A stretch of DNA of 64,000 nt from a virus, in the IMG/VR virus record IMGVR_UViG_3300045988_113306; one strand, given 5' to 3'. The notes beneath the pieces were generated by a model, which was given only the letters and a program-made list of their open reading frames with translations, was not told the DNA's origin and ran no database searches. Positions 8,085 through 63,621 of this stretch are shown in pieces. The position numbers and the translations under genes are program-made. Numbering within the stretch: position 1 is the stretch's first letter; every line of letters begins with the position of its first letter.

Positions 8085-8095
8085 ATTGTTAGTAA

Positions 8096-8113
8096 TTGGT
8101 TGTTAACAACCAA
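8096..8113. repeat. perfect 18-bp palindrome TTGGTTGTTAACAACCAA
   Basis: Read directly. Lies 11 nt from the G9 tract, between the two fibre paralogues. Confidence 0.9.
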
Positions 8114-43595: not shown

Positions 43596-43686
43596 AGCAA
43601 ACAAAATCCCCGAATGGGGCCGTTACACACCCAAACGAGGCTTTAGAAGGTTAAACTTGCGGTAACGGACGCAAATATAGTCTTAG

Positions 43687-43759
43687 TGGCGGGAGCAGGA
43701 ATCGAACCTGCGACCTCTGAGTTATGAGCACAGCGAGCTTCCGACTGCTCCATCCCGCG
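43687..43759 (-). tRNA. tRNA with CAU anticodon, initiator-like 5' end
   Basis: Reverse complement CGCGGGATGGAGCAGTCGGAAGCTCGCTGTGCTCATAACTCAGAGGTCGCAGGTTCGATTCCTGCTCCCGCCA folds as a cloverleaf. CTCATAA loop, GTTCGATTCC T-arm, C1:C72 mismatch, no encoded CCA. Confidence 0.85.
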
Positions 43760-43918: not shown

Positions 43919-44046
43919 CATCCGCATAATTAATCACTTAAATCCAATATTATGATGAAAGAATTGCTATTTAGCTTTGACATACTCCCACGGCTAAAGC
44001 GCGTGGGATTCTTGTGTGCAAACGCAGGATGCCGTATCAGATACGG
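43895..44046 (-). ncRNA. candidate TnpB omega-RNA / IS right-end region
   Basis: Region spanning the tnpB 3' end and downstream. Hairpins CCGTATC-T-GATACGG (44030-44046) and CCCACG-N9-CGTGGG (43991-44011). Boundaries are guesses. Confidence 0.3.
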
Positions 44047-45124
44047 TCTTACTCCCGCTCCACAATTCGGAGATGCCCCTCCGAAGTATATTCTCAGCCG
44101 CATTGAGGTCGCGGTCGTTTACCTTGCCGCATTCGGGACATACCCATTCGCGGTCGCTAAGTTTCAATCCTTTGTTCACATATCCACACTCGCAAGTTTT
44201 TGAGGACGGATAGAATCTATCTATCTTATGAACCGTCACGCCATACTTTCGTGCAATGTGTTCAAGTCTGCCGACAAATTCAGCATGAGCCAAATCCGAC
44301 ATCTTGCGTCCCCACATTCTCGTCATGCCGAGCAACGATAAATCTTCAATGAAGATATAATCATATTTGCGGCACAACTCATGTGCGAGCTTCCACTGAA
44401 AAAACTCGCGTTTGTGAGTGATGTTCTCGAACTCGCGGCACACATCCTTGCGTCTGCGCTGTCGGTTATTCGAGCCTTTCTTGCATTTGGATAGTGAGCT
44501 GGATTTGCGCCTAACGTTGTCAAGGTCGGATTTTAAGAACTGTGGATTCCTTACGGTCGTACCGTCCGATAAGGTCATATAGGTCTTTAAGCCGAAGTCA
44601 ATGCCTACGGATGCACCATTGTGTGTCTTTCCGTATGCTTTCGGGTCTGCGTCCGTTGTGATTATCAGATAGTATTCACCGAGTCGTGAACGCTTGATTG
44701 CGATTCGTTTAACCCTGCCCTCATAAGGCCGCGAATAAGAGAATTTGAAACGCTTCTTGATTGTATTCACCGTCAATGCGTTCCCGTTCAAAGAGAATCC
44801 TCCCTGCTTATAGACAATAGAACAGAAGTCAATCGCTTTTCTGAATTTAGGAGGCCGTTTTGCCAGCTTCTTAAAGAAACGTTGATATGATGTATCAAGG
44901 CGTTCAAGAATCTCTTGTGTCGTCTGTGAATGTAGCAGAGTGCGTTTTATTCTCTTTGCATAATGCTTCTGCATCGCATTCTTTGAGATAAACTTACCAA
45001 ACAGCGAATAATACCTCTTCTGCAATGCAAGGGAGTGATTCCATACAAAGGAAGCCTCTCGCAGCATAGCCGAGAGATGCTTATTCCGCTTGGAATTATA
45101 GAGCTTATATTTGTACGAAATCAT
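43994..45124 (-). CDS. tnpB: TnpB (IS200/IS605-family OrfB, RuvC-like RNA-guided nuclease)
   Basis: Start trimmed to MISYKYKLY. RuvC residues in VGIDFG, IFIEDL and DRDLNAAENI; zinc finger CECG..CPECG. No TnpA nearby. Confidence 0.9.
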   Translation of the reverse strand: MISYKYKLYNSKRNKHLSAMLREASFVWNHSLALQKRYYSLFGKFISKNAMQKHYAKRIKRTLLHSQTTQEILERLDTSYQRFFKKLAKRPPKFRKAIDFCSIVYKQGGFSLNGNALTVNTIKKRFKFSYSRPYEGRVKRIAIKRSRLGEYYLIITTDADPKAYGKTHNGASVGIDFGLKTYMTLSDGTTVRNPQFLKSDLDNVRRKSSSLSKCKKGSNNRQRRRKDVCREFENITHKREFFQWKLAHELCRKYDYIFIEDLSLLGMTRMWGRKMSDLAHAEFVGRLEHIARKYGVTVHKIDRFYPSSKTCECGYVNKGLKLSDREWVCPECGKVNDRDLNAAENILRRGISELWSGSKTVSDTASCVCTQESHAL

Positions 45125-51169: not shown

Positions 51170-51901
51170 TCAATCTTTTGCACTGAGAACACCGCAAAGC
51201 CCGTTCGACAGGACGTTTATGAAGTAATTGGCTCCGTCCATCGTGATGCGAACCCTCGGCCTTATCAACTTGCGCTGACCTCCCCGCTTGGTGCGGTCTA
51301 TCACGCTCATCAAGCCCAAGCTGATGGCCAATTCCGTCGGGTAGTCCGCACAACCCGGAACATACTGAAGAAAACCATGCTCATGTAGATACGCCACGAA
51401 CAAACGACGCTGCATGGGCTTGCCGTTCCACTTTATGAGCCGCCCGACCTCCGAGAACGAATAATCCTTGTCCTGAATCCTCATGGCCGTGGTCACTATC
51501 GCGTCATTCTTGACGACATCCTCCGTGGGAGTCGGCGGCACACAATTATGAATAGTCGTGCGACCCGTCGTCAGCAGCTCCTCAATTCGACGATTACACC
51601 ACAAACCGAACAAAGGCGCAAGCCATCGCGCAAACTCCATAGCCACATCCTTGTGCATCCATGTGCCCTGCGTGGTCTGAATTGAGCCTCCGCCTTTTCG
51701 CGTTATCACAAGCTCCGAAACGCAGATTTTCGTTTCGGCAGAAACAGCCTCAATGTAATCTTTCGCTGCTTGCGTCTTGAGCCAATCATTCGGGCTCTTG
51801 TTAAAACCTCGCGCCATTTGAGTGGCACAAACATACACATTCTTGCCCCGTGAGAACGTAATCTTGCTACCGTTGTAGCTAAAGTCCTGATAATTAATCA
51901 T
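51170..51901 (-). CDS. KilA-N / KilAC-domain antirepressor-like protein
   Basis: Start trimmed to MINYQDF. GTWMHKDVAMEFARWL (KilA-N-like) plus a C-terminal KilAC/ANT-like region. Confidence 0.75.
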   Translation of the reverse strand: MINYQDFSYNGSKITFSRGKNVYVCATQMARGFNKSPNDWLKTQAAKDYIEAVSAETKICVSELVITRKGGGSIQTTQGTWMHKDVAMEFARWLAPLFGLWCNRRIEELLTTGRTTIHNCVPPTPTEDVVKNDAIVTTAMRIQDKDYSFSEVGRLIKWNGKPMQRRLFVAYLHEHGFLQYVPGCADYPTELAISLGLMSVIDRTKRGGQRKLIRPRVRITMDGANYFINVLSNGLCGVLSAKD

Positions 51902-52444
51902 AAGACAAATAAAATAAAGTTCCCCTCCCGAGGCTACCACACACTCGAAAGGGGAAAACTTCAATATCTTACACCGAACGCCAGAGGTGGTAGGTGGCAT
52001 CCACGACGCAAAGTTATAACATCTTTCCCGATATTCCAAACGATTTCAACAAAAATATGCCAAAAAACATGAGATAAGACAGCAGAATCTCACACTCCCG
52101 ACCTTATTTCCAAGGTTTCCCCGCCATTATATAACGTATATTAGTACCCCATCCTAACATAGAAACACTATACTATGTATATACTATATATAAAGAAAAG
52201 AATAACTAAAGTTATTCTCAAAGAAGTGAAACTCCCCTCACAGCACGGCAATTGTTTGGAGTTGTCGACGCCTGAAAGGCACAAGACGAATCCAAGCCTT
52301 TGCCAGTGCGACCCCAACGCCACACATAAAAAACGTGCATCATATTCTCATACAATGCACGCCATCCAAAAAGTTAACTTACCAATGCAATTTGAAACAA
52401 AAAACCAATCATTGCTCGAACACAAAGGTAACACTTCCTGAACG

Positions 52445-52517: not shown

Positions 52518-52726
52518 CGGTATGTAGCATATATAGACAACAAAATCATAATGCCGTCTATTTGGCTCAGAAATGGCTCTATTTTCGATTTAAATATGTT
52601 AGACGATAATTTATATATCTGAAATATTTTAGGCTGCCACAACGCAAATAAACGACCAATTGTCAAGCGTTGCACTTGAATAGTGTTATATAGCAATGTA
52701 ACACCACTATTGTTGGTATCATAATA

Positions 52727-52743
52727 AGTGTATATTTTACACT
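52727..52743. promoter_or_regulatory. inverted repeat AGTGTA-N5-TACACT (module copy 1)
   Basis: Read directly; related to 52982-53006. Confidence 0.5.
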
Positions 52744-52981: not shown

Positions 52982-53006
52982 AATAAGTGTATTTTTTACA
53001 CTTATT
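52982..53006. promoter_or_regulatory. inverted repeat AATAAGTGTA-TTTTT-TACACTTATT (module copy 2)
   Basis: Perfect 10-bp arms. Confidence 0.55.
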
Positions 53007-53057: not shown

Positions 53058-53175
53058 TGTGAACTATGAATTGCCGTTTGAATGTTGGATATTGAGGTGT
53101 ATTTGTAAATGAATGTAAACTAAATTATGCTATTTGTTAAATAATATATAATATATGAAAAATTACGGCATAACA

Positions 53176-53207
53176 TTTGGTATTTGCAACCAAATGTTAT
53201 AACTTTG
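53176..53207 (+). promoter_or_regulatory. promoter TTTG-N20-TAACTTTG (candidate rightward early promoter)
   Basis: TTTG 53176-53179 and TAACTTTG 53200-53207, pointing into the small-gene array. Confidence 0.5.
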
Positions 53208-53692
53208 CTCCCGCAATCGAACATTGACACAATGAAATGGTGAAGTTAACACTAACGCAATTGATTTTGTGTGAATTATTACTTTTGAGTGAGCGTGTTA
53301 ATGTAGCTATTTTGCGCTTTACCATTCAGATAAATTCCTGAGTTTCAGGAGGATTAAAAACGAGTTGAACCGTTAACAGGTGAACTATGTCCCAACTGAA
53401 ACATGAATTAATTGCCAATGGCGGGGCAAAAACCGCGTTGACAGCCAAAACCAATCTATTTTGTGAGTATTGAACTTATGTCGTAATTAAGGGATAAAGG
53501 GGCAAAATACATACGTTAATACAATTCCAAGCGAATAGGGCACGGGTTATTCCCATTACGTGTTAGAGCCAGGAAGCCGTGACGTTGGAATATAACGGGC
53601 AGGTTGCGTTCATCGGAAAGACATCGGGGAGATATGGAAACATTGAGCGGGTCGAGCCGCCTCCCCGAACCAACCAATTAAACTTACAATAT

Positions 53693-53812
53693 ATGAAAGA
53701 GAAACTAATCATAGGCGCGAAGTGCGTCGCCGTCATCGTGGCGTGTGTGTCAGCGGTAGTGTTGTTAATCGGATTCATGCGTGTGTGTGAGTCGATTGGA
53801 TTTACAATGTGA
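53693..53812 (+). CDS. 39-aa single-TM peptide
   Basis: ATG 10 nt after the box at 53672; hydrophobic core. Confidence 0.4.
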   Translation: MKEKLIIGAKCVAVIVACVSAVVLLIGFMRVCESIGFTM

Positions 53813-53957
53813 TGAGCGAGGCAATTGTGTGCATCGGCGGAGATTCCCCGATGTCGACTGTGACGAGATGATATGGGAGATGTTTCCCAAGTATTAAACT
53901 TTAAATAGGCGGTATTGAACCGCTCTCAATGTTTAACCAATAAAAAACTTACGTAAA

Positions 53958-54146
53958 ATGAGGTACAGAATGTCATTGAACTATGGCCGCCTGACGGCGA
54001 CAATTCGCGAGTATGAGGACGGCAAGGTGGTGAGCAAATGGAGAACCGCAAGGCTGTGTAAAAAGGAATTCGAGTCGCTTGAATATTTCACCGAGAGCGA
54101 CATCAAGAGTTACTTGAACCGCGAAGAGCTTCAGCGAATAAAGTGA
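53958..54146 (+). CDS. hypothetical small protein
   Basis: 62-aa ORF behind a hairpin and box variant. Carries the 35-bp repeat shared with 54815-54849. Confidence 0.5.
   Translation: MRYRMSLNYGRLTATIREYEDGKVVSKWRTARLCKKEFESLEYFTESDIKSYLNREELQRIK
53980..54014 (+). repeat. 35-bp exact direct repeat, copy 1
   Basis: ACTATGGCCGCCTGACGGCGACAATTCGCGAGTAT, identical to 54815-54849. Confidence 0.95.
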
Positions 54147-54204
54147 GCCGAGGAGGTTGGGCGACCGACCTCCTGCATTGTTCAACCAATTAAAACTTAG
54201 AATT

Positions 54205-54582
54205 ATGGAAAGATACGATTATTTAGAAGTAGTGACGAACGATGTTAAGGGTTACATTGAAAGTGAAATCACAATGTCGGACTATTCCGACCGCGACGAA
54301 CTTGAAGAGTACCTGAACGAAGTTCTGTGGACTAACGACGGAGTGACCGGCAACGGCTCGGGGTCTTACACGTTCAATAAGTGGGAAGCCGAGGAGAATC
54401 TGTGCCACAATCTCGACCTGTTGGGCGAGGCTCTGAACGAATTTGGATGCGAGGCGAGCTATCTCGTTGAGAAAGGCGCCGAATCATGCGACGTGGCGAT
54501 ACGTTGCTATCTCCTCAATCAAGCCATCTCCGCAGCTCTTGACGAGTTGTGGGAGGATGAGGATGAGGATGACGACGATTGA
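54205..54582 (+). CDS. acidic protein with poly-Asp/Glu tail
   Basis: Start trimmed to MERYDY (box at 54184). 125 aa, ends WEDEDEDDDD. Confidence 0.6.
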   Translation: MERYDYLEVVTNDVKGYIESEITMSDYSDRDELEEYLNEVLWTNDGVTGNGSGSYTFNKWEAEENLCHNLDLLGEALNEFGCEASYLVEKGAESCDVAIRCYLLNQAISAALDELWEDEDEDDDD

Positions 54583-54646
54583 ATTGTGGAGGCTTGTGTT
54601 ACGGCATTGGCCTCCAACCCTGTTTAATCCATTTAAAAACAAGATT

Positions 54647-54829
54647 ATGAGAATTTATGAATTAGCCCCAATCTCAGGCCAAGGCCAAAAGAGCTTCTAC
54701 GGCAAGGCAATCGTCACCATTGACGACAACGGAGTTGAAACGCTTTTAAGCTACTGCACCAAGATTTGCGAGAGGCATCCCGACGGCAGCATAAAGAAGC
54801 TGTGGGACGGATGGACTATGGCCGCCTGA
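54647..54829 (+). CDS. hypothetical small protein (possibly continues in another frame to 54885)
   Basis: Start trimmed to MRIYELAP. The frame stops at DGWTMAA*, while the adjacent frame reads DYGRLTATIREYCGLNKKQWEAL*. Confidence 0.45.
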   Translation: MRIYELAPISGQGQKSFYGKAIVTIDDNGVETLLSYCTKICERHPDGSIKKLWDGWTMAA

Positions 54830-54849
54830 CGGCGACAATTCGCGAGTAT
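54815..54849 (+). repeat. 35-bp exact direct repeat, copy 2
   Basis: Identical to 53980-54014. Confidence 0.95.
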
Positions 54850-54947
54850 TGCGGTCTTAACAAGAAACAGTGGGAAGCGTTATGAATCATGGGAGGGCGA
54901 ATGAATCGCCCTCTGCCAACCAATTAACAATTAAAACTTAAAGAATC

Positions 54948-55085
54948 ATGAAACTAAAAGACCTACATTGCGACAAGCTCACTGCAACGGTACAAGACTA
55001 TTTCGACTGTTTCCTTGAAAATCGCGGTGACGGCATAATATATGACGAGGATGATGAAAAGTGTTACCGCTACGAGTATCTTTAA
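54948..55085 (+). CDS. hypothetical 45-aa protein
   Basis: ATG after hairpin 54893-54913 and the box at 54918. Stop lies just before the next hairpin. Confidence 0.45.
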   Translation: MKLKDLHCDKLTATVQDYFDCFLENRGDGIIYDEDDEKCYRYEYL

Positions 55086-55137
55086 CCCATGGGCGGCCGA
55101 GGGCCGCTTTCAATCACCAATTTAAAATTAACGAATT

Positions 55138-55374
55138 ATGAAACGTAGAGAATTTTCAAACGAGGCCAAGAAGGCCGTAGCTATCCAAATCATCACATTG
55201 TTGGAGAACAGCATCCTTGAAGAAAACGGGCCGCAGTCCTTCAGTGTATGGTGCGAGAACGGTGCGGTGTTCGACGATGAGGATTGCGCGGAAGAATGCA
55301 AGGAGCTGATGGAGCTGATGGAGAGCCGAGTAGAGGCGGTGGTGTTCAGTCCGATGGCGATTGATTTCGAGTAG
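55138..55374 (+). CDS. hypothetical acidic protein
   Basis: 78-aa ORF behind a hairpin and box. Confidence 0.55.
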   Translation: MKRREFSNEAKKAVAIQIITLLENSILEENGPQSFSVWCENGAVFDDEDCAEECKELMELMESRVEAVVFSPMAIDFE

Positions 55375-55430
55375 CACCGTGGGGCGACAAGCCCCATGAC
55401 AATTATTAACCCAATTAAAATTTAACAGAT

Positions 55431-55598
55431 ATGAATGTTTACAAGTTCAGATTGATTGAAACGTATTCAAAAGTAGTCAGCATCGAGGCCGATTCAAGGG
55501 AAGAGGCATTTGATATGCTTGACCAAAAGGTTTCCGAGGGCGATATTGACGCGATGGACAACTACGACGACTACGAGCGAGAAATCTACGACGCCTAA
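55431..55598 (+). CDS. small acidic protein, DpnD/PcfM-like pattern
   Basis: 55 aa: MNVYKFRLIETYSKVVSIEADSREEAFDML..DYEREIYDA. Size and pattern recall DpnD/PcfM-like proteins (from memory). Confidence 0.4.
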   Translation: MNVYKFRLIETYSKVVSIEADSREEAFDMLDQKVSEGDIDAMDNYDDYEREIYDA

Positions 55599-55651
55599 CG
55601 GCGAGGTGGGGCGCAAGTCCCGCTGCTTCTAACCAATTAAATTTAGGTAGT

Positions 55652-55978
55652 ATGAATAACAAAGAAAAAACAGTAAAGTTGATTAACGCAATCTTGAACA
55701 AACTCTATAACGATTTCAACATTAAAGTCATTGATGTGAACGGGAATTGCGTAAAAGCGATAATCAAGCATGAGATGGACGAATTAGAACGTAAGCTGTC
55801 GATTGCCATGATATTTGAAGTGTGTGACGAAATAGAGAATGTGCCGTTTTATGGCAAGATTCTTATACCAAATACAATCAGAGTTGTAGACTTAAACACC
55901 GTTTACACGTTCCGTGATGAGTGCAAGTTCACAGATGAAGATTTAGGGTCAATACTTAACAACCCTATTTTCAATTGA
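55652..55978 (+). CDS. hypothetical protein
   Basis: 108-aa ORF, 10 nt after the exact box. Confidence 0.55.
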   Translation: MNNKEKTVKLINAILNKLYNDFNIKVIDVNGNCVKAIIKHEMDELERKLSIAMIFEVCDEIENVPFYGKILIPNTIRVVDLNTVYTFRDECKFTDEDLGSILNNPIFN

Positions 55979-56028
55979 TTTATAGAGGTCGCAAGACCTC
56001 TCGCTATTCACCAACAATTAAACTTATT

Positions 56029-56304
56029 ATGAAAAGACTATTTATCGTGACTGCTCCGATAGATTTCGGACGGAATGAGCTGGAAGAGGCGTTGTGGATT
56101 GAGGATATTGACACCGAAAAGATAACCGAGATAATGGACGGCAATCCCGACTTTCAATTGTGGGACTTGGTAGACTTCGTGGAGTTCTGCAACAACCAAG
56201 AGTTCGATGTCGAAGGCTGCTGGATGCAGTCGGTTGAGGTTGAAGTCCCCGACGACTACAGTCCTAACAAGTCGACATGGTACATGAAGCTGATTCGGTT
56301 CTAA
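56029..56304 (+). CDS. hypothetical acidic protein
   Basis: Start trimmed to MKRLFIV, behind hairpin AGAGGTC-GCAA-GACCTCT. Confidence 0.55.
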   Translation: MKRLFIVTAPIDFGRNELEEALWIEDIDTEKITEIMDGNPDFQLWDLVDFVEFCNNQEFDVEGCWMQSVEVEVPDDYSPNKSTWYMKLIRF

Positions 56305-56386
56305 ACAACGAGGACAAAAATTGTAAGGGTAATATGTAGGGCCATTGTAGGCCCTACTACAATCACCAACTTAAAACTTAAAAACT

Positions 56387-56632
56387 ATGAAAGTATATGT
56401 TTACACTGAGTCGTGGTACACGCCCGACGAGTATGTGGGCATCGCCGATGTTCAGGTATTCAAATACAAGGCCGACGCATTGTCGTATCTCGCAATGAAG
56501 CGTGACGACTTTCTTAATTACCCGGATGATGAATGGGTGTGTGATTGGGGCGATAAAGACGGCTCGACATTCGCACATCTGTCAGCGGGCAATGACGATG
56601 TAGTGATGAGCGTGACCGAGCGTGACATTTAA
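56387..56632 (+). CDS. hypothetical protein
   Basis: 81-aa ORF behind an 8-bp hairpin and box. Confidence 0.55.
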   Translation: MKVYVYTESWYTPDEYVGIADVQVFKYKADALSYLAMKRDDFLNYPDDEWVCDWGDKDGSTFAHLSAGNDDVVMSVTERDI

Positions 56633-56658
56633 TGATTAACCATTTAAATTTTATCATT

Positions 56659-56733
56659 ATGTTTTTCGTATGTGTATTAATTTGGGCCGTAGTCACGGTG
56701 TTTAAAGGACTTACTGATGGCAGGGCCGACTAA
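56659..56733 (+). CDS. 24-aa hydrophobic peptide
   Basis: MFFVCVLIWAVVTVFKGLTDGRAD, between a box and a hairpin. Very short. Confidence 0.3.
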   Translation: MFFVCVLIWAVVTVFKGLTDGRAD

Positions 56734-56786
56734 GAAACGGAGGTCGCAAGACCTCTGACATCACCAATAACTAAAACTTTAAGATT

Positions 56787-57062
56787 ATGACACAGAAAGA
56801 ATTTGAACAAACGAAAGAATGGGTCGAAAATAACACTGGATTAGAGTTTATAGACGACCAAGCATTGTATGACAAGGATGGAGCCTATTTTGAAAAGGCG
56901 ATAGACTCCGACAAACGAGTCAAGCTTTGCATAGACAATGACCGTTCCGCCGAGTTGTGGATGCTCTTCAACGATGATTCATGCGTTGAAATATTCACAT
57001 CAAGTTCACAGAACAATTGGCGATGTTTGAGAGTGTTCGCACACATCGTGACTTACAACTAA
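56787..57062 (+). CDS. hypothetical protein
   Basis: 91-aa ORF behind a hairpin and box. Confidence 0.55.
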   Translation: MTQKEFEQTKEWVENNTGLEFIDDQALYDKDGAYFEKAIDSDKRVKLCIDNDRSAELWMLFNDDSCVEIFTSSSQNNWRCLRVFAHIVTYN

Positions 57063-57200
57063 GACGGAGGCTTCGGCCTCTGACAGACCGTCGTTGTGAA
57101 ACGGCCTTAATTGTAAGTTTAAGTGTTTAATGGGCGGCCATTTAGTTGGCCGCTTTCAATGCGGGATGTTCCGCAGACAACCAATTTTAACTTAATCATC

Positions 57201-57392
57201 ATGAAAGAAACAGAAAACGGCTTTGAGGAAAAAGTAGGAGGCTTCGTGCGCATACTGCTTATTTTCATCGGTGTGATGATTCTCTTGTCAATGTGCGAGC
57301 GGTCATCATGTAGCGGAGGCGATTACGATGACCGATGGGACAGGTTGCAACACGAGGTGGACACAGACCCATACTACCAACAATGGAAGTGA
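57201..57392 (+). CDS. small single-TM protein
   Basis: Start trimmed to MKETENG; TM segment GGFVRILLIFIGVMILLSM. Confidence 0.5.
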   Translation: MKETENGFEEKVGGFVRILLIFIGVMILLSMCERSSCSGGDYDDRWDRLQHEVDTDPYYQQWK

Positions 57393-57455
57393 CCTAAACC
57401 CGAAGGGAGATTAAGTTCTCCCTTTGCAAATCATTAACCAATTAAAGAAACTATT

Positions 57456-58115
57456 ATGAGAATTTCAAACGAAACAATCCGACATTTTGAGTCATTGGGT
57501 ATCGAAGTCAAGAACCATCCCGGAACAGAGAGCGATTGGCGTGAAAAGGTGTGGAATGACGAATATAAGTGGTCTTACAACTACGGCAAGGACGCAACTC
57601 TCGGCTACGACGAAAACGGCAAATCAATCCATCCGACGCACGAGCAACTACACAAACGTGCGACCGAATGGGCCGACAGATACACTCCGAGAAAGATGAA
57701 CAATTGGTACGACGCCAATATGCTCTACGTGGAGTATGACGACGGTGAGAATCACCGCGTCATCTGCCAAAAAGTCAGTGTCAAGTCAAAGGAAATCACG
57801 GTCGAATACATCGACAAGCTGATTGCAAAGGACAAGAAAGCGTACAGTGGCACATTCGGCAAGTTCACGGATGCCATGAACAAAGTGCTTGAAACATTGG
57901 GGTACACCGGCCGGTTCTGGGTATATCCCACGACATACGGCATCGGGGTATGGGTATTCTACAACTTCAACGCTGAAAAGAACATCAAGGATGTGGAGTC
58001 CATACTGAAGGCCAATAACGTTCAATACTACAACGAGTATAGTGACGCGCATTACGTATATCGATTCAAGGTGTCAAAAAAGCAGGCTAACATGAAGCTC
58101 ATTGCAGCTTGCTGA
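57456..58115 (+). CDS. hypothetical protein
   Basis: 219-aa ORF, the largest in the array, 9 nt after the exact box. Confidence 0.6.
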   Translation: MRISNETIRHFESLGIEVKNHPGTESDWREKVWNDEYKWSYNYGKDATLGYDENGKSIHPTHEQLHKRATEWADRYTPRKMNNWYDANMLYVEYDDGENHRVICQKVSVKSKEITVEYIDKLIAKDKKAYSGTFGKFTDAMNKVLETLGYTGRFWVYPTTYGIGVWVFYNFNAEKNIKDVESILKANNVQYYNEYSDAHYVYRFKVSKKQANMKLIAAC

Positions 58116-58166
58116 CTTATGGGAGGGGTTGGCCCTCTATCTATCAACCAATTAAATTTTAAAGAT

Positions 58167-58532
58167 ATGAAAACAAGAACGATGAATGACGGCTATGTAT
58201 GGCTGGTGGTCGAGAAACCCTTGGCATTGCAGATGTTCAAATGCAACGAGGATGTCTACAAGCTGTACGACGACGGCAGCGAGAGCCTTTGCGAGGACGA
58301 GAACGAGATTAAGTTGTCCGACGCCGAGTTCGGCATAGGATTGGGATTCGTGGACGACATGAACCCGACCTGCCCGACTTGCGGTGCGCAGCTTACAAGG
58401 ATGACGGCAAATGGTGGGACACTGGGCTATGCTCTTCCGGCCGTGACGGATGGACACCCGGAGAGCTTGAAACTTATTATGAGCGAGAGTGTGAGTAAAC
58501 CGCTTTCTAACCGCGTTTCTCGGCTCGGATGA
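58167..58532 (+). CDS. hypothetical protein
   Basis: Start trimmed to MKTRTMNDG; contains CPTCG. Confidence 0.55.
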   Translation: MKTRTMNDGYVWLVVEKPLALQMFKCNEDVYKLYDDGSESLCEDENEIKLSDAEFGIGLGFVDDMNPTCPTCGAQLTRMTANGGTLGYALPAVTDGHPESLKLIMSESVSKPLSNRVSRLG

Positions 58533-58587
58533 TAAAGTGTCCATTCGGGCGGAGAAGTCGCGGGAGAAGGCAAATAAATAGACGATT

Positions 58588-58773
58588 ATGAATAAGGATA
58601 TGGAACAACTAGGCGCAAATCAAGCCGATTCTGTTGCAAAGAAAATTACGAAATTAACCAAGTCATTAAAGAACTCAACTGAGCTTGGATATGAAACAAA
58701 AGAAATCAAACAGGAGATTCTCGAAAGATGTGCAGAACTGAGCAATCTCATGATTTGTATGATATTTCACTGA
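58588..58773 (+). CDS. hypothetical protein
   Basis: 61-aa ORF without a box or hairpin upstream. Confidence 0.45.
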   Translation: MNKDMEQLGANQADSVAKKITKLTKSLKNSTELGYETKEIKQEILERCAELSNLMICMIFH

Positions 58774-58868
58774 TTTACGGCGGGGTCATTCCCGCTCTCT
58801 AACCAATTAAAACAAACTATGACAAAGAAAGATTTGCTAAAATTGCTCCCCAACTGCAAGATGGTGGG

Positions 58869-59060
58869 GTGGACGAGCCAAGCGTGGAGATAAACGGCAA
58901 GCGATACCTGTTGTGGGGATTCATGCGTGATGACAGACAGATATGGGTAGATATGGAAAGCGATGACGGCTTCGGCCGGTGGCTGACACCGATAAACGAC
59001 TTTCCGAGAGGTGTTGTAAAGTACATCTACCAATGCGCTGAACGAAAGCTGGTCAAGTGA
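58869..59060 (+). CDS. hypothetical protein (start unresolved)
   Basis: Track ORF starts at GTG. The box-associated ATG at 58819 is in another frame, so either a frameshift or the GTG start applies. Confidence 0.4.
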   Translation: MDEPSVEINGKRYLLWGFMRDDRQIWVDMESDDGFGRWLTPINDFPRGVVKYIYQCAERKLVK

Positions 59061-59108
59061 ACATAGAGGGGAGCAATCCCCTCTACTAACCAATAAAAAA
59101 CAACAACG

Positions 59109-59423
59109 ATGAAAAAGAATGAAATCAATTTGAAAAAGGAAGGCTTCAATTTAAATGCAAATGTCTATCCAGCAGGCTACCATTATAAGGAGATTATGAG
59201 GCTCGGACGAGTGTTCCCCACCACCAAGGCGCAGGCTGCATATTTCATACAACTGGGCAGATACCCCGACGCATACAACATGGATGATGTGGAGCTTGTG
59301 GAAAGGGAACTCAACCCTTACGGCTTCGATGGAGAGTATGAATACACCAAAAGCAAAACAATGGTTCGTCTTGTCAATCTTGACGACATGTGCAAGGCGT
59401 TGAAACTGAAATACGGCCTTTAA
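59109..59423 (+). CDS. hypothetical protein
   Basis: 104-aa ORF behind hairpin AGAGGGGA-GCAA-TCCCCTCT. Confidence 0.55.
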   Translation: MKKNEINLKKEGFNLNANVYPAGYHYKEIMRLGRVFPTTKAQAAYFIQLGRYPDAYNMDDVELVERELNPYGFDGEYEYTKSKTMVRLVNLDDMCKALKLKYGL

Positions 59424-59475
59424 TCCAAGTGGGCTTGAAACAAGGCCCGCTCCTAAACACCCAAACAACAGCAAC

Positions 59476-59763
59476 ATGATTAAGAACGAAGTTTTAAACT
59501 ACATCCCAACAGCCACGCTGAGGGAAGTGTGCGACTTGTGGCACAAAGTAAACGACATAGTTAACGGCTCCGAGGACTGCTACAAGCAGTTCGACGTGAC
59601 AAACGATGATGGTTGGTACGTTGATAGGGACATTGACACGGATTCGTGCCGTATCAGAATAACGACGGACATCGAAGTAAACAGAACATATCTATGGGAA
59701 TCCATATCCCTTTTCTATGAAGGCGATTGGATAGCAGACACCGACATCCACGAGCTTGAATAG
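59476..59763 (+). CDS. hypothetical protein
   Basis: 95-aa ORF. Confidence 0.55.
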   Translation: MIKNEVLNYIPTATLREVCDLWHKVNDIVNGSEDCYKQFDVTNDDGWYVDRDIDTDSCRIRITTDIEVNRTYLWESISLFYEGDWIADTDIHELE

Positions 59764-59821
59764 TTCATAGAATAATTGGAGGCTGAAAAAGCCTCTGCCT
59801 AATAACCAAAAAAGAAAAAGC

Positions 59822-60124
59822 ATGATATACAAATCGTACAAATTCAAAGACAGAAACGGGCAAGAGTTTAAGGTTCGTTTTTATTTCACCGGCATCTACA
59901 CCTTCGTTGACTGCAACGGGGAACACGAAATAGGCATGTGGTGGAAGGAGCCACTGATGGTCGGCAAGCACAATGACAAACCATCGAAAGACAGGAACAA
60001 TGTCAGGTATCACGCTCGTCCGTTCAGTCAGGAATATGCCTACCGCTACGCCGACTTCTCGCTCGGAGAGGTGGCGAGGAGGATAGCGATAGCCGAGATT
60101 ATGAGAGTCAATGCCACGCTATGA
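59822..60124 (+). CDS. hypothetical protein
   Basis: 100-aa ORF behind a hairpin. Confidence 0.55.
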   Translation: MIYKSYKFKDRNGQEFKVRFYFTGIYTFVDCNGEHEIGMWWKEPLMVGKHNDKPSKDRNNVRYHARPFSQEYAYRYADFSLGEVARRIAIAEIMRVNATL

Positions 60125-60154
60125 CCGATTGTTAACTTTTAAAACTCCAACAGT

Positions 60155-60343
60155 ATGAAAGAATCAATCAAAGTAAAAGAGCTAAATTCAATGCTCAACA
60201 AAGTTGAAGCCATGTCCAAGCAAGTGACGCGGATAAAACAACGTAACGACTTGTCCTCTGATGACAAATATATGGCCTTAAAAGTAGGGCAAGAACTACA
60301 TACTCTCAATCAATATATTAAGATATGGTTATTTCAAATATAA
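60155..60343 (+). CDS. hypothetical protein
   Basis: 62-aa ORF. Confidence 0.5.
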   Translation: MKESIKVKELNSMLNKVEAMSKQVTRIKQRNDLSSDDKYMALKVGQELHTLNQYIKIWLFQI

Positions 60344-60357
60344 AAACGACGCAAAAA

Positions 60358-60389
60358 CTTGTGCAATCAAAAAATTGTCGCTACCTTTG
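60358..60389 (+). promoter_or_regulatory. promoter CTTG-N20-TACCTTTG
   Basis: CTTG 60358-60361 and TACCTTTG 60382-60389. Confidence 0.5.
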
Positions 60390-60394
60390 TGTCA

Positions 60395-60473
60395 GCAAGC
60401 ATAGCATAACGATAACACTGCATTTTTGAATTATTCATCAAAACACCTCGTTTGAGAAAATAAGGTGTTTTTT
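60395..60473 (+). ncRNA. candidate ~80-nt small RNA or attenuated leader
   Basis: Between the promoter at 60358-60389 and the terminator at 60442-60473. No ORF. Confidence 0.3.
60442..60473 (+). terminator. intrinsic terminator
   Basis: AACACCT-N14-AGGTGTT followed by TTTTATTT. Confidence 0.55.
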
Positions 60474-60485
60474 ATTTGAAAATAT

Positions 60486-60516
60486 TTTGCGGTTTCAAAA
60501 AAATGATTTACATTTG
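60486..60516 (+). promoter_or_regulatory. promoter TTTG-N19-TACATTTG
   Basis: TTTG 60486-60489 and TACATTTG 60509-60516: a consensus-quality Bacteroidota promoter. Confidence 0.65.
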
Positions 60517-60521
60517 CAATG

Positions 60522-60667
60522 CAAACAACCAATAGGGCACGGTTGAACATAGCATAGTCGAAAACATACGATAGTCCGTTTCGCCTACTTGATTGTAGGA
60601 GATTCCGATAAAGCGATACCAGCTCGTGCCCTACATTGGAGTTGGTATTGCTTTTTTTATTTCTTGC
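60522..60667 (+). promoter_or_regulatory. structured 5' leader with mutually exclusive stems (terminator/antiterminator-like)
   Basis: TAGGGCACG (60533-41) can pair with CGTGCCCTA (60625-33). Alternatively GCGATACC (60613-20) pairs with GGTATTGC (60644-51), followed by T7 (60652-58). Confidence 0.4.
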
Positions 60668-61513
60668 ATGGCGACGAAACTCAACATACCAATATCGGAA
60701 CTCTCAACCCGAAAGGATAAAGACCAAAAATCGGATTGGGAGCTGTTGTGTTTCAATGTCGGTGTGAAAATACTCAGCGGGGCTGGGAAATTCAGGGCCA
60801 CCGCACAAGACATCCAAAAGGCTTTTCATTGCAACTACTACAAGGCGAAGCGATTGGCCGAGGATGCGAAATCCAACAAAAAACTATTCAGATACGACGA
60901 GAAACGTAATGTGCTTACCGCAAAGCGATTTGAGCACAGGACTGAATGCAATCGCCGTAACGAAGAAATAGAAGCAACCTATTGCGTGAAGATAAAAGTC
61001 AAGAGGGATTTGCCAGTGTTTTCACTGCAAGCGATTTCTGACTTGTTACGCCAACGGTTAATGCAAAATGCGTTCAATGCCACCTATCGGACGAATAAGT
61101 TTCCTTTGCGGGCATCTGTTGAAAAAGATTCCTATTGTTCACGAAAGACAGAGCTGACATTGAACAAACTTGCTAACATCGTGGGGCGCAGCCGTCGTCA
61201 AACAATACGGATGATGAAGCGAATGGAGAATGACAATGTTATCAAGGTGGAACGACACCCTATGAAACTTGTCCTCGCTTGCGTTAATGACGAAACCGTC
61301 AAGGAAATCAAACGGGTTAAGCACATAAGGCCGTTTTTCATCAACGGGATGGGTTACAGTCGTAGCGCAAACGTTTACTTCCTGAATGATGCTGAGATTG
61401 AGCAATCGTTCTGTCACATCATTTACTCCCACACCAAGAGAGTCAAGTCAAAACAATCATCGTCAAAGGAACAAGGATTCTATGATAGAGAGATTAATCA
61501 GATGTTTAATTGA
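60668..61513 (+). CDS. hypothetical DNA-binding protein (winged-helix-like segment)
   Basis: Start trimmed to MATKLNIP (ATG 60668). LNKLANIVGRSRRQTIRMMKRMENDNVIKV looks HTH-like. Confidence 0.55.
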   Translation: MATKLNIPISELSTRKDKDQKSDWELLCFNVGVKILSGAGKFRATAQDIQKAFHCNYYKAKRLAEDAKSNKKLFRYDEKRNVLTAKRFEHRTECNRRNEEIEATYCVKIKVKRDLPVFSLQAISDLLRQRLMQNAFNATYRTNKFPLRASVEKDSYCSRKTELTLNKLANIVGRSRRQTIRMMKRMENDNVIKVERHPMKLVLACVNDETVKEIKRVKHIRPFFINGMGYSRSANVYFLNDAEIEQSFCHIIYSHTKRVKSKQSSSKEQGFYDREINQMFN

Positions 61514-61615
61514 TGTTTTTGTTTTGTCACCAATGTATGATAATACATTATTTAGGGGCATCTGCCTTGATGTGGCCTTTAAGAAAGAAAATTAACAAGT
61601 TAATTTCCAAAAGAA

Positions 61616-62032
61616 ATGAAACCGAATCGAAAACGCAAGACAAGCAGGATTGACCGAGATTCAATCTATGAGGAGTTTTGTCAAGAAATGGACTTATTCT
61701 CGGACACCCAACCTTATCCCGACTGGGTGTTTGACTATCGGGATGAACATTTGAGCAAAATGTCAAGTAAACTTATAAAAATCTGTCGAAAGTTCAAGTC
61801 GTCAGGCATTGAATTCAGGATATTCCAGCCTATGCGAATATTTGATAAGTGGAAGTTTGCCGACATTTACGTTCCCAGCAAGAACACGGTCATAATAGTC
61901 ACCACTTATCCACATCCCGTTGGATGGCTTACTGAAAGGGCAAGATTCTTTAAAGACCGATGCAATGTATATGAGCTTGACGGTGATGAAACGACAGATT
62001 ATTTATCAGAGTTGATTGATAAGCTAAAATAG
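61616..62032 (+). CDS. hypothetical protein (weak endonuclease-fold resemblance)
   Basis: 138-aa ORF. FADIYVPSKNTVIIV loosely resembles PD-(D/E)xK/DUF559-type cores. Confidence 0.45.
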   Translation: MKPNRKRKTSRIDRDSIYEEFCQEMDLFSDTQPYPDWVFDYRDEHLSKMSSKLIKICRKFKSSGIEFRIFQPMRIFDKWKFADIYVPSKNTVIIVTTYPHPVGWLTERARFFKDRCNVYELDGDETTDYLSELIDKLK

Positions 62033-62077
62033 AGATAAGGAGGTAATTCCTCCCACCAACCAAAATCCCCCTTTGAT

Positions 62078-62260
62078 ATGAAAAAGAAAATCAATTCAAA
62101 ACACATCTTTGACAATCTGAATGATGCGTTCAAGTTCACCAATACCATTGAATCAGCAGGATTCAAGTGCGATGAATACACAGATGACGGCGGAGTTGTG
62201 TTCGTCAACGCCGACGGCTACACATTGTATGTCGCCGTTCAACAGAAAATACGTTATTAA
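62078..62260 (+). CDS. hypothetical protein
   Basis: 60-aa ORF behind hairpin GGAGG-TAATT-CCTCC. Confidence 0.5.
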   Translation: MKKKINSKHIFDNLNDAFKFTNTIESAGFKCDEYTDDGGVVFVNADGYTLYVAVQQKIRY

Positions 62261-62829: not shown

Positions 62830-63621
62830 ATGGCAACGTATGCGTATCTAAGGTATTCAACAAATTTGCAAGACGAGGCACAACAGTTGAATACGATAAC
62901 AAACTACCTCAAGCAAAAAGGCATGACACTCGATAGAACTTATATGGATGAGGGCATATCGGGCGGTATAAGCTATACAAAACGTAATCTCTATGACTTA
63001 TGCAAGGCTATCAAGCAAGGCGATACCGTGGTCGTGAGCGAAGTTAGCCGATTGACACGTTCAGGAATATCGGAGCTTTCGGAAATCATAGAGAAGCATT
63101 TCAAGACCAATAAACTTAGGCTTATTATATGTAATGTGGGCCTTGACATTGACTGCTCTGACATAAATCCCATGACGGAGCTACAGCTTGCAATGCTTGC
63201 CACTTTTGCCAAAATAGAGCGTAATTTGATTAAAGAGCGCACCAAATCTGCTCTTGATGTGCGTAAGCAAAAACTCGCCAACGGTGAAACTCTAATCAGC
63301 AAGGCTGGAAGAGCATACACCAAGTTAGGCCGACAGGACGACAATGCAGGCACCGCGTGGGACAAGGCATTGAACAACTCCATCGAAACCAATAAGAAAA
63401 AAGCGCAGGACAACGAGAACAACATACGCTTCGCCCGATGGCTCGGCGTGTGGGAATCCAAGAACGGCGTCGTTGACCGACATACCGACCTCGCCCCAAT
63501 TCTCGCCGAGGTCAGCGCTTTGGGCCTAAAGACATCATCCGGCATGGAGTTCAAAAAAGAATCCCTAAGACAGATGATATATCGAACCCACGAAAGAAAA
63601 TTGCAAACAATCAACGCATAA
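62830..63621 (+). CDS. small serine recombinase (resolvase/invertase family)
   Basis: Start trimmed to MATYAYLRYSTNLQDE (catalytic Ser context). DEGISGG, VSRLTRS and ERNLIKERTKSAL motifs. Confidence 0.9.
   Translation: MATYAYLRYSTNLQDEAQQLNTITNYLKQKGMTLDRTYMDEGISGGISYTKRNLYDLCKAIKQGDTVVVSEVSRLTRSGISELSEIIEKHFKTNKLRLIICNVGLDIDCSDINPMTELQLAMLATFAKIERNLIKERTKSALDVRKQKLANGETLISKAGRAYTKLGRQDDNAGTAWDKALNNSIETNKKKAQDNENNIRFARWLGVWESKNGVVDRHTDLAPILAEVSALGLKTSSGMEFKKESLRQMIYRTHERKLQTINA

Follow-up and report, generated by a model that had tools for sequence, protein, structure and literature searches.

Why are the small rightward genes of this Bacteroides-type phage punctuated by hairpins and a conserved box, and at which step of gene expression would such punctuation act? 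Within the window, by which we mean the whole 64,000-nt stretch of viral DNA that was analysed, the array at 53.7–60.3 kb reads as a single polycistronic operon, some 7 kb long, with about 22 small ORFan genes, and it is framed by the following elements.

53176–53207, + strand: Bacteroidetes-type promoter TTTG-N20-TAACTTTG, which drives the array; sole full plus-strand match before 60486
53169–53201: 13-bp inverted repeat overlapping the promoter at 53176–53207
53212–53623, + strand: long 5' leader with no convincing ORF; its GGTGAACTATG block is kept in relatives
60440–60477 (approximately), + strand: canonical intrinsic terminator at the array end, a stem followed by six U (z = -2.8)

A probable operon with repeated units

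Matches to TTTG-N15-23-TAnnTTTG numbered 16 in the window, against 2.95 expected, and those on the plus strand were confined to 53176 and 60486. No TAHHTTTG was found on the plus strand from 53288 to 60381, leaving the array with no internal -7 element. The arrays of related phages have one full promoter match each, with isolated internal -7-like matches ranging from none (L235) to two (L237). The units of the array, and one outlying unit, are as follows.

53624–53695, +, unit 1: branched stem 53624–53668, box 53672–53682, ATG 53693; 88% identical to L235 5633–5693
53908–53960, +, unit 2: hairpin 53908–53924, box 53935–53945, ATG 53958
54151–54207, +, unit 3: 10-bp hairpin 54151–54174 (GCGA loop; z = -4.0), box 54184–54194, ATG 54205
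54587–54649, +, unit 4: hairpin 54587–54616, box variant 54627–54637, ATG 54647
54892–54950, +, unit 5: hairpin 54892–54914, box 54918–54928, partial duplicate 54925–54935, ATG 54948
55091–55140, +, unit 6: hairpin 55091–55109, box variant 55115–55125, ATG 55138
55378–55433, +, unit 7: hairpin 55378–55398, box 55409–55419, ATG 55431
55605–55654, +, unit 8: hairpin 55605–55624 (GCAA loop, G-U pairs), box 55631–55641, ATG 55652
55984–56031, +, unit 9: hairpin 55984–56001 (GCAA loop), box variant 56012–56022, ATG 56029
56336–56389, +, unit 10: hairpin 56336–56357, box variant 56364–56374, ATG 56387
56638–56661, +, unit 11: box 56638–56648 without hairpin (26-nt spacer), ATG 56659
56738–56789, +, unit 12: hairpin 56738–56757 (GCAA loop; z = -3.8), box variant 56762–56772, ATG 56787
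57065–57203, +, unit 13: hairpins 57065–57082 (UUCG loop), 57132–57155 and 57160–57175, box variant 57179–57189, ATG 57201
57401–57458, +, unit 14: hairpin 57401–57426, box 57436–57446, ATG 57456
58122–58169, +, unit 15: hairpin 58122–58138, box 58146–58156, ATG 58167
58779–58821, +, unit 17: hairpin 58779–58796, box 58801–58811, ATG 58819
59064–59111, +, unit 18: hairpin 59064–59085 (GCAA loop; z = -5.4), box 59088–59098, ATG 59109
59428–59478, +, unit 19: hairpin 59428–59451, degenerate G-poor leader, ATG 59476
59777–59824, +, unit 20: hairpin 59777–59797, degenerate box 59804–59814, ATG 59822
62039–62080, +, outlying unit of the next operon: hairpin AGGAGG/CCTCC ending 21 nt from the ATG at 62078, box-like ACCAACCAAAA

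The first-pass annotation had placed six exact copies of the 11-mer AACCAATTAAA on the plus strand, and our count recovered all six where it had put them; shuffles predict 0.04 copies, and none of 100 reached six. The mismatch variants that it listed were also present, with trivial register shifts (55408 versus 55409, 56009 versus 56012). With up to two mismatches there are 22 plus-strand matches, 17 of which precede ATGs of the small-gene array (53.7–59.1 kb). The excess of exact copies may partly reflect intragenomic homogenisation of paralogous units (repeat families D1–D3) rather than selection. The box ends 6–19 nt upstream of the ATG (7–19 nt had been estimated), most commonly 10 nt, and its first base falls between -17 and -30, most often at -21; the standard deviation of the box position is 4.4 nt. 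Taken as a whole, the leader is nearly invariant over some 25 nt, T-AACCAATTAAAA-CTTAGAATT-ATG, and is used 17 times in one operon. Composite units of hairpin plus leader were found 11 times on the plus strand, all at 54.2–59.8 kb, and never on the minus strand, the background rate being 0.15–0.17 per 10 kb. Weaker box-like leaders, which had been suspected elsewhere, precede a candidate head-protein gene (22722) and a gene at 63690. A box had also been reported before a minus-strand ATG at 8086; this ATG opens just a 14-codon uORF, whose TAG abuts the ATG (8041) of a 503-aa ORF.

Hairpins between the genes

RNAfold gave a stable GC-rich hairpin in 17 of the 20 spacers of at least 26 nt, in agreement with the at least 14 GC-rich stems noted beforehand; three cistrons had none. 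The leaders, from box to ATG, were unpaired in the minimum free energy folds. In four related phages, a hairpin score of at least 17 was reached at 64 of 83 gene starts, compared with 4.3 ± 2.1 in dinucleotide shuffles. Half of the tetraloops (17/34) were GNRA or UNCG, against about 5% expected, while the reverse-complement classes accounted for just one of the 34, and the loops called initially were correct (GCGA at 54161; GCAA at 55613, 55991, 56746 and 59073; TTCG at 57072). Folding energies were similar on both strands. G-U pairs made up 13% of stem pairs and, together with the tetraloop classes and the unpaired leaders, they identify the hairpins as sense-strand RNA structures. The loop of unit 20 is read as GAAAA by the stem search, and is a GAAA tetraloop if a U-A pair closes.

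The hairpins start 0–7 nt past the preceding stop codon, their distance to the ATG has a sharp minimum of 21 nt and is mostly 21–33 nt, and an unstructured AAUU stretch lies 2–12 nt downstream. As the first reading had held, the stems lack a U-tract (mean of 1.6 T within 8 nt 3' of the stem) and are not canonical terminators: no post-stop inter-gene hairpin passed a terminator scan, whose three plus-strand matches in the array fell at 53772 and 55842 (both intragenic) and at 57090 (in the long spacer 57063–57200).

It had been proposed that the box is a site for an unknown polymerase. In such a scheme a phage polymerase or sigma factor would use the box as its promoter, and the hairpins would be U-less terminators, overridden by antitermination that is loaded in the 470-nt leader. 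This would suit the conserved upstream element that each gene has of its own, the long and partly conserved 5' leader before the array, and the terminator-like GC content and loops of the stems. The proposal is contradicted, however, by other phages and host genes, in which the box lies in 5' UTRs at a variable distance (4–27 nt) downstream of TAnnTTTG, the -7 element of sigma-ABfr promoters. Moreover, the phage's own terminator at 60440 has the U-tract that the hairpins lack, and the search revealed neither a phage RNA polymerase nor a sigma factor; the matches of the 2633-aa ORF are to families of giant tail proteins, with none in the PDB. The box was rejected as a promoter in view of the one array promoter (53176–53207), the lack of an internal -7 element and the anchoring of the box to the ATG, and we consider the scheme as a whole highly improbable.

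Alternatively, an RNase E/G- or Y-type endoribonuclease of the host could cut the A/U-rich single-stranded box beside each hairpin, so that the long early transcript would yield monocistronic mRNAs, each with a protective 3' hairpin, or with a 5' hairpin if the cut precedes it. Sense-strand hairpins with very stable tetraloops and no U-tract, situated just behind stop codons and followed by the unstructured AAUU stretch, are consistent with processing of this kind. However, the box is fixed relative to the ATG, as for a ribosome site, unit 1 has a hairpin yet no upstream gene to protect, and in phages B124-14 and BD26P2 the leader sits directly behind promoters with no hairpin at all. We judge processing somewhat unlikely; it is compatible with a role in translation rather than exclusive of it. 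Because other Bacteroides phages have the leader without the hairpin, the leader does not need the hairpin in order to work.

Probable translation initiation at the leaders

Relatives were found with the 219-aa gene behind unit 14 (ATG 57456) as the query, its protein having 273 homologues, and an ATG-anchored profile was built from the 83 gene starts of four related phages. The frequency of A was.81/.86/.71 at -13/-12/-11 and.81 at -3 (purine.97), T reached.81 at -1, and G stayed at 0–10% over -23 to -6; ATG triplets were depleted 5-fold in the leaders. C in the AACC part of the box had frequencies of.42/.37 at -18/-17, and this part has no known recognition partner that would explain its conservation. 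The box is thus start-associated and, as first described, neither TAnnTTTG nor a Shine-Dalgarno (SD) sequence, and a search of the leader for rRNA complementarity found none that was significant.

In F. johnsoniae, A at -3, -6, -12 and -13 and low structure favour initiation (PMC6847099). An A/T enrichment is centred at -12/-13, with S1 suggested as the partner (PMC3155529). A hairpin inserted at -21 was harmless in Prevotella (1.34x), whereas constructs with a hairpin start at -14 to -18 gave reduced protein (PMC3155529), and the modal 5' UTR of B. thetaiotaomicron is 23 nt (PMC7366714). The most conserved box positions coincide with the initiation determinants described for Bacteroidetes (A-rich -11 to -14, A at -3, no structure), and the 21-nt minimum between hairpin and ATG agrees with the Prevotella hairpin experiment.

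From these sequence patterns, we consider it probable that a cassette of hairpin plus SD-less translation initiation precedes each cistron of one polycistronic operon. Host RNA polymerase would transcribe the whole array. The first part of the cassette would be the sense-strand hairpin, beginning 0–7 nt past the stop and ending no closer than 21 nt to the ATG that follows, and the second an unstructured, nearly G-free leader of 21–33 nt, whose core, the AACCAAUUAAA box, would be a highly conserved form of the Bacteroidota SD-less ribosome-binding region. Its AAA at -13 to -11, with A at -3 and U at -1, would supply the initiation-promoting positions of the phylum, and initiation would probably depend on the ribosomal protein bS1 and on the mRNA exit channel, not on rRNA pairing. 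By holding the GC-rich flank in a local fold just beyond the ribosome footprint, the hairpin may act as an insulator, and the landing pad would therefore stay single-stranded whatever the upstream gene; it is probably also a stabiliser, forming a barrier to 3'-to-5' decay of the upstream segment.

Isolated Bacteroides and Phocaeicola phages share this leader of about 25 nt, as do gut microviruses and Flavobacteriia-type viral contigs, and it is also present upstream of some chromosomal Bacteroidota genes. Among the 80 phage records matched by a real 33-mer leader query, 55 were Bacteroides or Phocaeicola, whereas shuffled 33-mers matched 25 and 13 records, none from these genera; the leader is therefore sequence-specific and conserved beyond composition. 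Upstream of host genes the box was found in 3 of 316 cases versus none in controls, a rate like that at non-Bacteroidota loci, and because there is no general enrichment it is not "the" host ribosome-binding site. Of the earlier suggestion of a phage-specific translation enhancer, the enhancer is the best-fitting role, but "phage-specific" does not stand, given the leader in other phages and hosts.

Such conservation, and the 17 copies in one operon as against a few weak versions elsewhere in the phage, might also point to a trans-acting regulator, a T4 RegA-like phage translational repressor or a host protein that binds single-stranded RNA, such as RbpB, that binds the box and switches the early class together. 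RbpB does bind AU-rich sequence near Bacteroides ribosome-binding sites (PMC11697453). However, the phage yielded no candidate RNA-binding protein, and the array proteins are without Pfam or PHROG matches; the positions of highest information are general initiation determinants, and the leader's presence in unrelated phages, microviruses and host genes suggests a common host partner. We regard such a regulator as improbable.

Mosaicism and known systems

Gene content and order are mosaic among the four relatives, while the punctuation is conserved: nucleotide homology covers ORFs alone and ends at their borders, and of the 22 array proteins just 5 are matched by homologues in three relatives. 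The genome has duplicated hairpins and units; a 17-nt core of the unit 12 hairpin is identical to that of unit 9 (55985 and 56740), a 38-nt direct repeat at 53977 and 54812 is 97% identical, and the triple-hairpin spacer 57063–57200 resembles a deletion scar. All of this would favour recombination joints as the primary selected function, the units being kept for shuffling ORFan cassettes, either as mobile regulatory cassettes like those of T4 or as attC-like sites. Yet an integron integrase is absent, the short, perfect stems have RNA-type loops and no conserved R'/R'' cores or extrahelical bases, shared identity extends over just 11–25 nt, and translation, not recombination, accounts for the ATG-anchored geometry and the depletion of G. 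Recombination as the primary function is accordingly unlikely; as a by-product, the joints first proposed are supported, since punctuation that is alike between unrelated genes would offer short homology for cassette swaps under the favoured initiation cassette. Overall, the interpretation of the first-pass annotation is partly supported.

U-less GC hairpins inside operons (REP-type) are barriers to 3' exonucleases, and unstructured G-poor leaders (S1-dependent; TMV omega, T7 gene 10 epsilon) enhance SD-independent initiation. Here, unlike in either, both elements are fused into a unit of constant geometry that recurs ahead of each cistron, and the rRNA pairing claimed for T7 gene 10 epsilon has no significant counterpart.

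The finding is mostly covered by known biology, the box being an unusually conserved Bacteroidota SD-less start signal. It shares with the published region (Accetto & Avgustin 2011, PMC3155529; Baez et al. 2019, PMC6847099) the lack of an SD, A-richness from -11 to -14 together with A at -3 and -6, reduced G+C and no structure over the last ~20 nt, AUG depletion and tolerance of a hairpin from -21 outward. It differs in that the published signal is a weak compositional logo rather than a near-fixed sequence, in its 17-fold reuse in one operon and its sharing by diverse Bacteroidales phages, and in the AACC extension at -21 to -18, which lies outside the published determinants.

The whole resembles both the promoter-early stem-loops (PeSLs) of T4-like phages and the start-associated sequences (SAS) of Cluster K mycobacteriophages, and the likeness to the latter and to cassette boundaries noted initially was apt. 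Like PeSLs (Arbiol 2010, PMC2839356; Comeau 2014, PMC4122927), a stem-loop and a conserved expression signal occupy almost all spacers of a hyperplastic region of ORFans, where relatives differ by associated insertions, deletions and swapped genes. The PeSL signal, however, is a sigma-70 promoter, whereas ours is a probable translation leader with no promoter elements inside the array. The SAS/ESAS (Pope 2011, PMC3203893) is likewise an asymmetric repeat of 11–13 nt, lying in one orientation just ahead of the ATG where non-structural genes have long spacers, with an upstream inverted repeat in about half and a suspected role in translation. It has an SD core 3–7 nt from the start and is essentially missing from host genomes, whereas the present box has no SD, starts at -21 and occurs in hosts as well; and where the ESAS arms are conserved in sequence with no support for RNA pairing, the stems here vary in sequence and keep their pairing and RNA tetraloops.

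Layout of the array and its operon

The conserved 11-mer AACCAATTAAA, referred to here as the box, occurs in six exact copies in the window, all on the plus strand and at the coordinates reported by the first-pass annotation, compared with 0.04 expected from shuffles, an enrichment over shuffled controls. Allowing up to two mismatches recovered all of the variants listed in that annotation, and 17 box copies lie directly 5' of the ATGs of small plus-strand ORFs between 53.69 and 59.11 kb. These ORFs belong to an array of ~22 small genes whose repeated unit is a hairpin, a G-poor, A-rich leader containing the box, and an ATG. RNAfold confirmed the GC-rich hairpins described upstream of the boxes: of the 20 spacers that are 26 nt or longer, 17 form a stable one, with the sequence from box to ATG unpaired, and the loop sequences quoted for them were all correct. 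Conservation in related phages was also borne out: a 219-aa array protein has 273 homologues, and three contigs encoding relatives at 54–73% identity (L235, L236 and L237) keep the layout seen in the window. The hairpin-box layout is a real and statistically overwhelming feature.

The composite unit is also specific. We applied a strict detector requiring a hairpin end 21–35 nt before an ATG, a leader with at most two G, at least two A at positions -13 to -11, a purine at -3 and an ORF of at least 30 aa. In the window this detector scored 11 units, each of them plus-strand and located at 54.2–59.8 kb; the three relatives had 18, 11 and 16. The background in genome loci was 0.15–0.17 per 10 kb, and LoVEphage, whose terminase is 27% identical, had essentially no composite units.

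The window derives from a tailed phage, with genes for the large terminase, a primase/helicase, methyltransferases, an SbcC-like protein and a candidate major head protein. Its host is a member of the Bacteroidota, because sigma-ABfr promoters (TTTG-N15-23-TAnnTTTG) are in excess, with 16 full matches versus 2.95 expected, and because the closest terminases, which share just 27% identity, come from the Bacteroides phages C3_41T2LP and LoVEphage. Sigma-70-type matches were at chance (28 versus 25.4). Full promoter matches on the plus strand were restricted to 53176-53207 and 60486-60516, and no plus-strand -7 element (TAHHTTTG) was found in a search of 53288-60381. Given the one promoter ahead of the array, the lack of an internal -7 element and the terminator listed below, the ~22 small genes are therefore most simply read as one ~7-kb operon behind a 470-nt leader, with the hairpin-box units as internal punctuation of a single transcript.

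Features bearing on the operon
51170-52000, minus strand: divergent regulator or antirepressor-like gene
52723-52743 and 52982-53002: two copies of the palindrome AAGTGTA-N6-TACACTT, operator-like, upstream of the array
52760, 52802 and 53036: three copies of CAACTATAA-N-TTTAGTTG, an operator-like repeat
53169-53201: 13-bp inverted repeat across the array promoter
~60440-60477, plus strand: canonical terminator with a run of six U, in contrast to the U-less array hairpins
60533-60541 with 60625-60633: long-range stem of the next operon (TAGGGCACG with CGTGCCCTA), enclosing ~85 nt
9355-17256, minus strand: giant 2633-aa ORF

A role for the box as a promoter or phage polymerase site was considered and rejected. 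The operon has no internal -7 elements, the window yielded neither a phage RNA polymerase nor a sigma factor, and the giant 2633-aa ORF is tail-like, matching only large phage tail-protein PHROGs and having no sequence relative in the PDB. Comparison of the array proteins with Pfam and PHROG returned nothing except one sub-threshold Pfam match, to DUF5509. With Rfam 15 at the gathering threshold, the sole match in the window was a tRNA-Met (43686-43759), leaving the units and the array 5' leader without a family.

The 470-nt array leader (53212-53623) contains no convincing ORF. A block at ~53353-53392 (...GTTGAACCGTTAACAGGTGAACTATGTCC) is conserved in the leaders of the three relatives, in which GGTGAACTATG repeats also occur, and may act as a regulatory RNA or bind a protein, for example in antitermination. 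The leader of the next operon (60521-60667) has a T-run after its stem, just ahead of the ATG at 60668, and the relatives have a hairpin and T-run ahead of the position homologous to this start; this structured leader may be an attenuator. Its AATAGGGCACGG string is also present in the array leader, at 53534-53545.

The box and leader as a probable translation start signal

Scanning the 16-mer AACCAATTAAAACTTA against IMG/VR and one genome per prokaryotic species yielded many intergenic sites with an ATG 3–10 nt further downstream. On viral contigs (29–47% G+C), the box was preceded by a tetraloop hairpin or, 6–27 nt upstream, by TAnnTTTG. Start-proximal matches in the genome scan were almost all in chromosomal Bacteroidota genes, including an ATP-synthase c-subunit-like gene in Bacteroides, OmpA-like paralogues and an ExbD-like gene, with the box 4–17 nt downstream of a -7 element. 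Since the box sits 4–27 nt past -7 elements, it lies inside the 5' UTR, at a variable distance from the transcription start.

An ATG-anchored alignment of all 83 gene starts from the four phages (the window and its three relatives) showed A at frequencies of.81,.86 and.71 at -13, -12 and -11, A at.61 at -6, A at.81 and purine at.97 at -3, and T at.81 at -1. G accounted for 0–10% across -23 to -6, and there was no Shine-Dalgarno (SD) sequence. Overall leader composition was A.48, C.21, G.06 and T.25, ATG triplets were depleted five-fold, and the leaders were unpaired in the minimum free energy folds of RNAfold. In Flavobacterium johnsoniae, initiation is determined by A at -3, -6, -12 and -13 together with low structure (PMC6847099), and Bacteroidetes show A/T enrichment centred on -12/-13, for which bS1 has been proposed as the partner (PMC3155529). 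The array shares with this SD-less initiation region a sigma-ABfr host, the lack of an SD, a G-poor upstream sequence of reduced G+C, A-richness from -11 to -14, A at -3 and -6, and an unstructured stretch from about -20 to the start, with structure only from about -21 outward.

The leader was also sought outside the four phages, by searching 50,697 phage genomes with a 33-nt consensus and, as a control, with two composition-matched shuffles. The consensus matched 80 records, including 31 Bacteroides and 24 Phocaeicola phages, with Flavobacterium and Riemerella phages and gut microviruses among the remainder; the shuffled leaders matched 25 and 13 records, none of them from Bacteroides or Phocaeicola phages. 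The leader is sequence-specific, beyond mere A-richness. The motif takes the form TAAC(C/A)AATTAAAA-TTAGAATT-ATG in B124-14, BD26P2 and a chicken microvirus, where it usually lies 20–25 nt past a -7 element. Chicken microvirus mg7_7 (L361) has the leader TTTAACAACTAAAACTTACAATTATG at 400-425, ahead of an unannotated ORF, and the records H25, H29, H31 and H52 are gut- or animal-associated Microviridae with the same leader. There are hints here that the Microviridae bearing the leader infect Bacteroidota, and the leader could act as a host-prediction signal for ssDNA phages.

Because the box occurs in 5' UTRs, is anchored to the ATG and belongs to a sequence-specific leader, we interpret it as a translation initiation region. 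Known biology accounts for the box, the core of this feature: it is probably the Bacteroidota SD-less initiation region, in an unusually fixed form that is common to many Bacteroidales phages. The use of the box as a general host ribosome-binding site was rejected: a PWM scan found it in ~1% of 316 Bacteroidota upstream regions, a rate no different from that in non-Bacteroidota loci, and its occurrence in hosts is sporadic. Pairing with 16S rRNA, in the manner of an epsilon-like enhancer, was likewise rejected, as the best Watson-Crick run against 29 Bacteroidales 16S sequences was 7 nt, which 17–36% of shuffled motifs equalled and which is therefore at chance level. A more far-reaching proposal, which we regard as rather doubtful, is that AACCAAUUAAAA-CUUAGAAUU-AUG is a Bacteroidota-wide, sequence-specific translational enhancer, acting beyond an unstructured A-rich stretch and recognised through some part of the 30S platform peculiar to Bacteroidota, for instance bS1 or the bS21/bS18/bS6 pocket. 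Several unrelated phage lineages, ssDNA microviruses among them, would have arrived independently at this 'super-RBS', and a hairpin at -21 or beyond would be its obligatory 5' boundary in polycistronic RNAs.

Only weak positional preferences have so far been described for the way in which Bacteroidota ribosomes find start codons without an SD, and phages usually bear the strongest forms of host expression signals. A near-invariant leader of ~25 nt, common to many Bacteroides and Phocaeicola phages, provides a defined target for mutagenesis, imaging and binding studies with ribosomes or bS1.

The box-like leader reported before the minus-strand ATG at 8086 is present, but, in the one correction of fact to the first-pass annotation, this ATG opens a 14-codon uORF and not a structural gene. 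The uORF's TAG directly abuts the ATG (8041) of a 503-aa ORF, and AGGAGG lies within the uORF; the arrangement looks like translational coupling or re-initiation, and a nine-G run at the uORF could be prone to slippage. Several minus-strand genes have a strong SD-like AGGAGG 6–10 nt upstream. The SD is thought not to be read in Bacteroidota, so that AGGAGG is unexpected in such a phage, and its presence points to start signals of two kinds within a single genome.

Minus-strand start signals
8042-8101: box-like leader AACCAATTACT and 14-codon uORF, ATG-GGGGGGGG
28864-30951: primase/helicase, AGGAGG-led (region 30952-30970)
8153-9355: AGGAGG-led ORF (region 9356-9375)
35689-36033: AGGAGG-led ORF (region 36034-36050)
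6530-8041: AGGAGG-led ORF (region 8045-8060)

Hairpins as sense-strand RNA structures

A hairpin score of at least 17 was reached at 64 of the 83 starts, versus 4.3 +/- 2.1 in shuffles. Tetraloops from the four phages (n=34) comprised 12 GNRA and five UNCG loops, or 50% versus ~5% expected, while the reverse-complement loop classes accounted for one of the 34, and G-U made up 13% of stem pairs. Because of these loop classes and G-U pairs, the hairpins are read as sense-strand RNA structures; folding energy showed no strand asymmetry. Stem sequences are wholly different among units and at orthologous positions in the relatives, with pairing retained.

Intrinsic (Rho-independent) termination was rejected as a function. 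As the first-pass annotation stated, the hairpins lack a U-tract: the 8 nt past the stem contain a mean of 1.6 T, and none of the inter-gene hairpins following stop codons passed a stem-plus-U-tract scan. The true terminator at the end of the array differs from them in this respect. The 5' edge of the hairpin lies 0–7 nt past the stop codon, and the first unit has a conserved stem with no gene ahead of it, which favours association of the hairpin with the downstream start.

The distance from the 3' base of the hairpin to the next ATG was 21–33 nt in ~66 of 73 cases, with a sharp minimum at 21. In Prevotella bryantii, expression was not lowered by a -9 kcal/mol hairpin placed at -21 (1.34-fold), and protein yield fell in constructs with hairpins starting between -14 and -18 (PMC3155529); the modal 5' UTR of Bacteroides thetaiotaomicron is 23 nt (PMC7366714). 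The 21-nt minimum fits these data, and the hairpin thus marks the upstream edge of a ribosome landing pad. This minimum represents a footprint-like constraint with 83 natural examples, in agreement with the single published Prevotella experiment. The hairpin would likely insulate the G-free leader from the GC-rich coding sequence upstream, and would likely shield the upstream segment from 3' exonucleases; it may be an additional determinant of RNase processing. For multi-gene constructs in gut Bacteroidales, the hairpin-leader module supplies an insulated expression part that is ready for use.

Mosaic gene content and known systems

Homologues in the three relatives exist for only five of the 22 array proteins, in differing order, and nucleotide similarity to the relatives is confined to ORFs (for example 54191-54583, 56028-56304 and 57453-58093). 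The units in the window are mutually 61–86% identical, and two hairpins have an identical 17-nt core. Gene content between the units is thus mosaic. Within the array, a 38-nt direct repeat connects the 5' part of one small gene with another gene's 3' end and downstream sequence, and resembles the trace left by a recent recombination or duplication. The unusually long spacer 57063-57200, with three hairpins and a decayed leader-like stretch to an ATG (~57100-57132), looks like the scar of a deleted cassette. The box-led ORF 58819-58893 stops at 24 codons and a 63-aa ORF (58869-59060) continues in another frame, a break that could reflect a frameshift, a sequencing error or a decaying gene.

Repeat and mobile-element genes
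53977-54014 and 54812-54849: direct repeat, 38 nt, 97% identical, 835 nt apart
4737-5399, plus strand: HNH endonuclease, a mobile-element gene within the phage
43994-45124, minus strand: IS-type transposase, adjoining the tRNA-Met
62830-63621, plus strand: serine resolvase, a mobile-element gene within the phage and the only recombinase near the array

Blastn of the array against INPHARED gave no match, and a pattern search of IMG/VR for the 219-aa protein was likewise negative. Searching the literature by sequence string returned primers and coding sequences only, and keyword searches found no description of the leader or the layout. In the literature searched, the extended consensus leader appears to be undescribed, as does its combination with a tetraloop hairpin, located at -21 or farther out, into the repeated punctuation of a single-promoter ORFan cassette array.

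Among known systems, integron attC sites are 57–141 nt long, with RYYYAAC and GTTRRRY cores and extrahelical bases, and lie beside an IntI tyrosine recombinase. An attC array was rejected for the window: the stems are perfect and of 6–14 bp, with sense-strand RNA tetraloops, and RYYYAAC could be fitted by eye in only two units. The start-associated sequences of Cluster K mycobacteriophages (SAS/ESAS) resemble the array units in placement. However, the SAS consensus GGGATAGGAGCCC contains an SD core 3–7 nt from the start and is absent from the host (PMC3203893), whereas the box has another sequence without an SD, starts at -21 and is present in Bacteroidota chromosomes; the ESAS inverted repeats do not behave as RNA stems, unlike the array hairpins. 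The promoter-early stem-loops (PeSLs) of T4-like phages are alike in their location among hyperplastic ORFans and in gene swaps (PMC2839356; PMC4122927), but their conserved signal is a promoter, and the array units have no host promoter consensus beside the stem-loop. The array would extend the PeSL idea to another phylum and another signal, in which a conserved punctuation may also serve as recombination joints in ORFan arrays.
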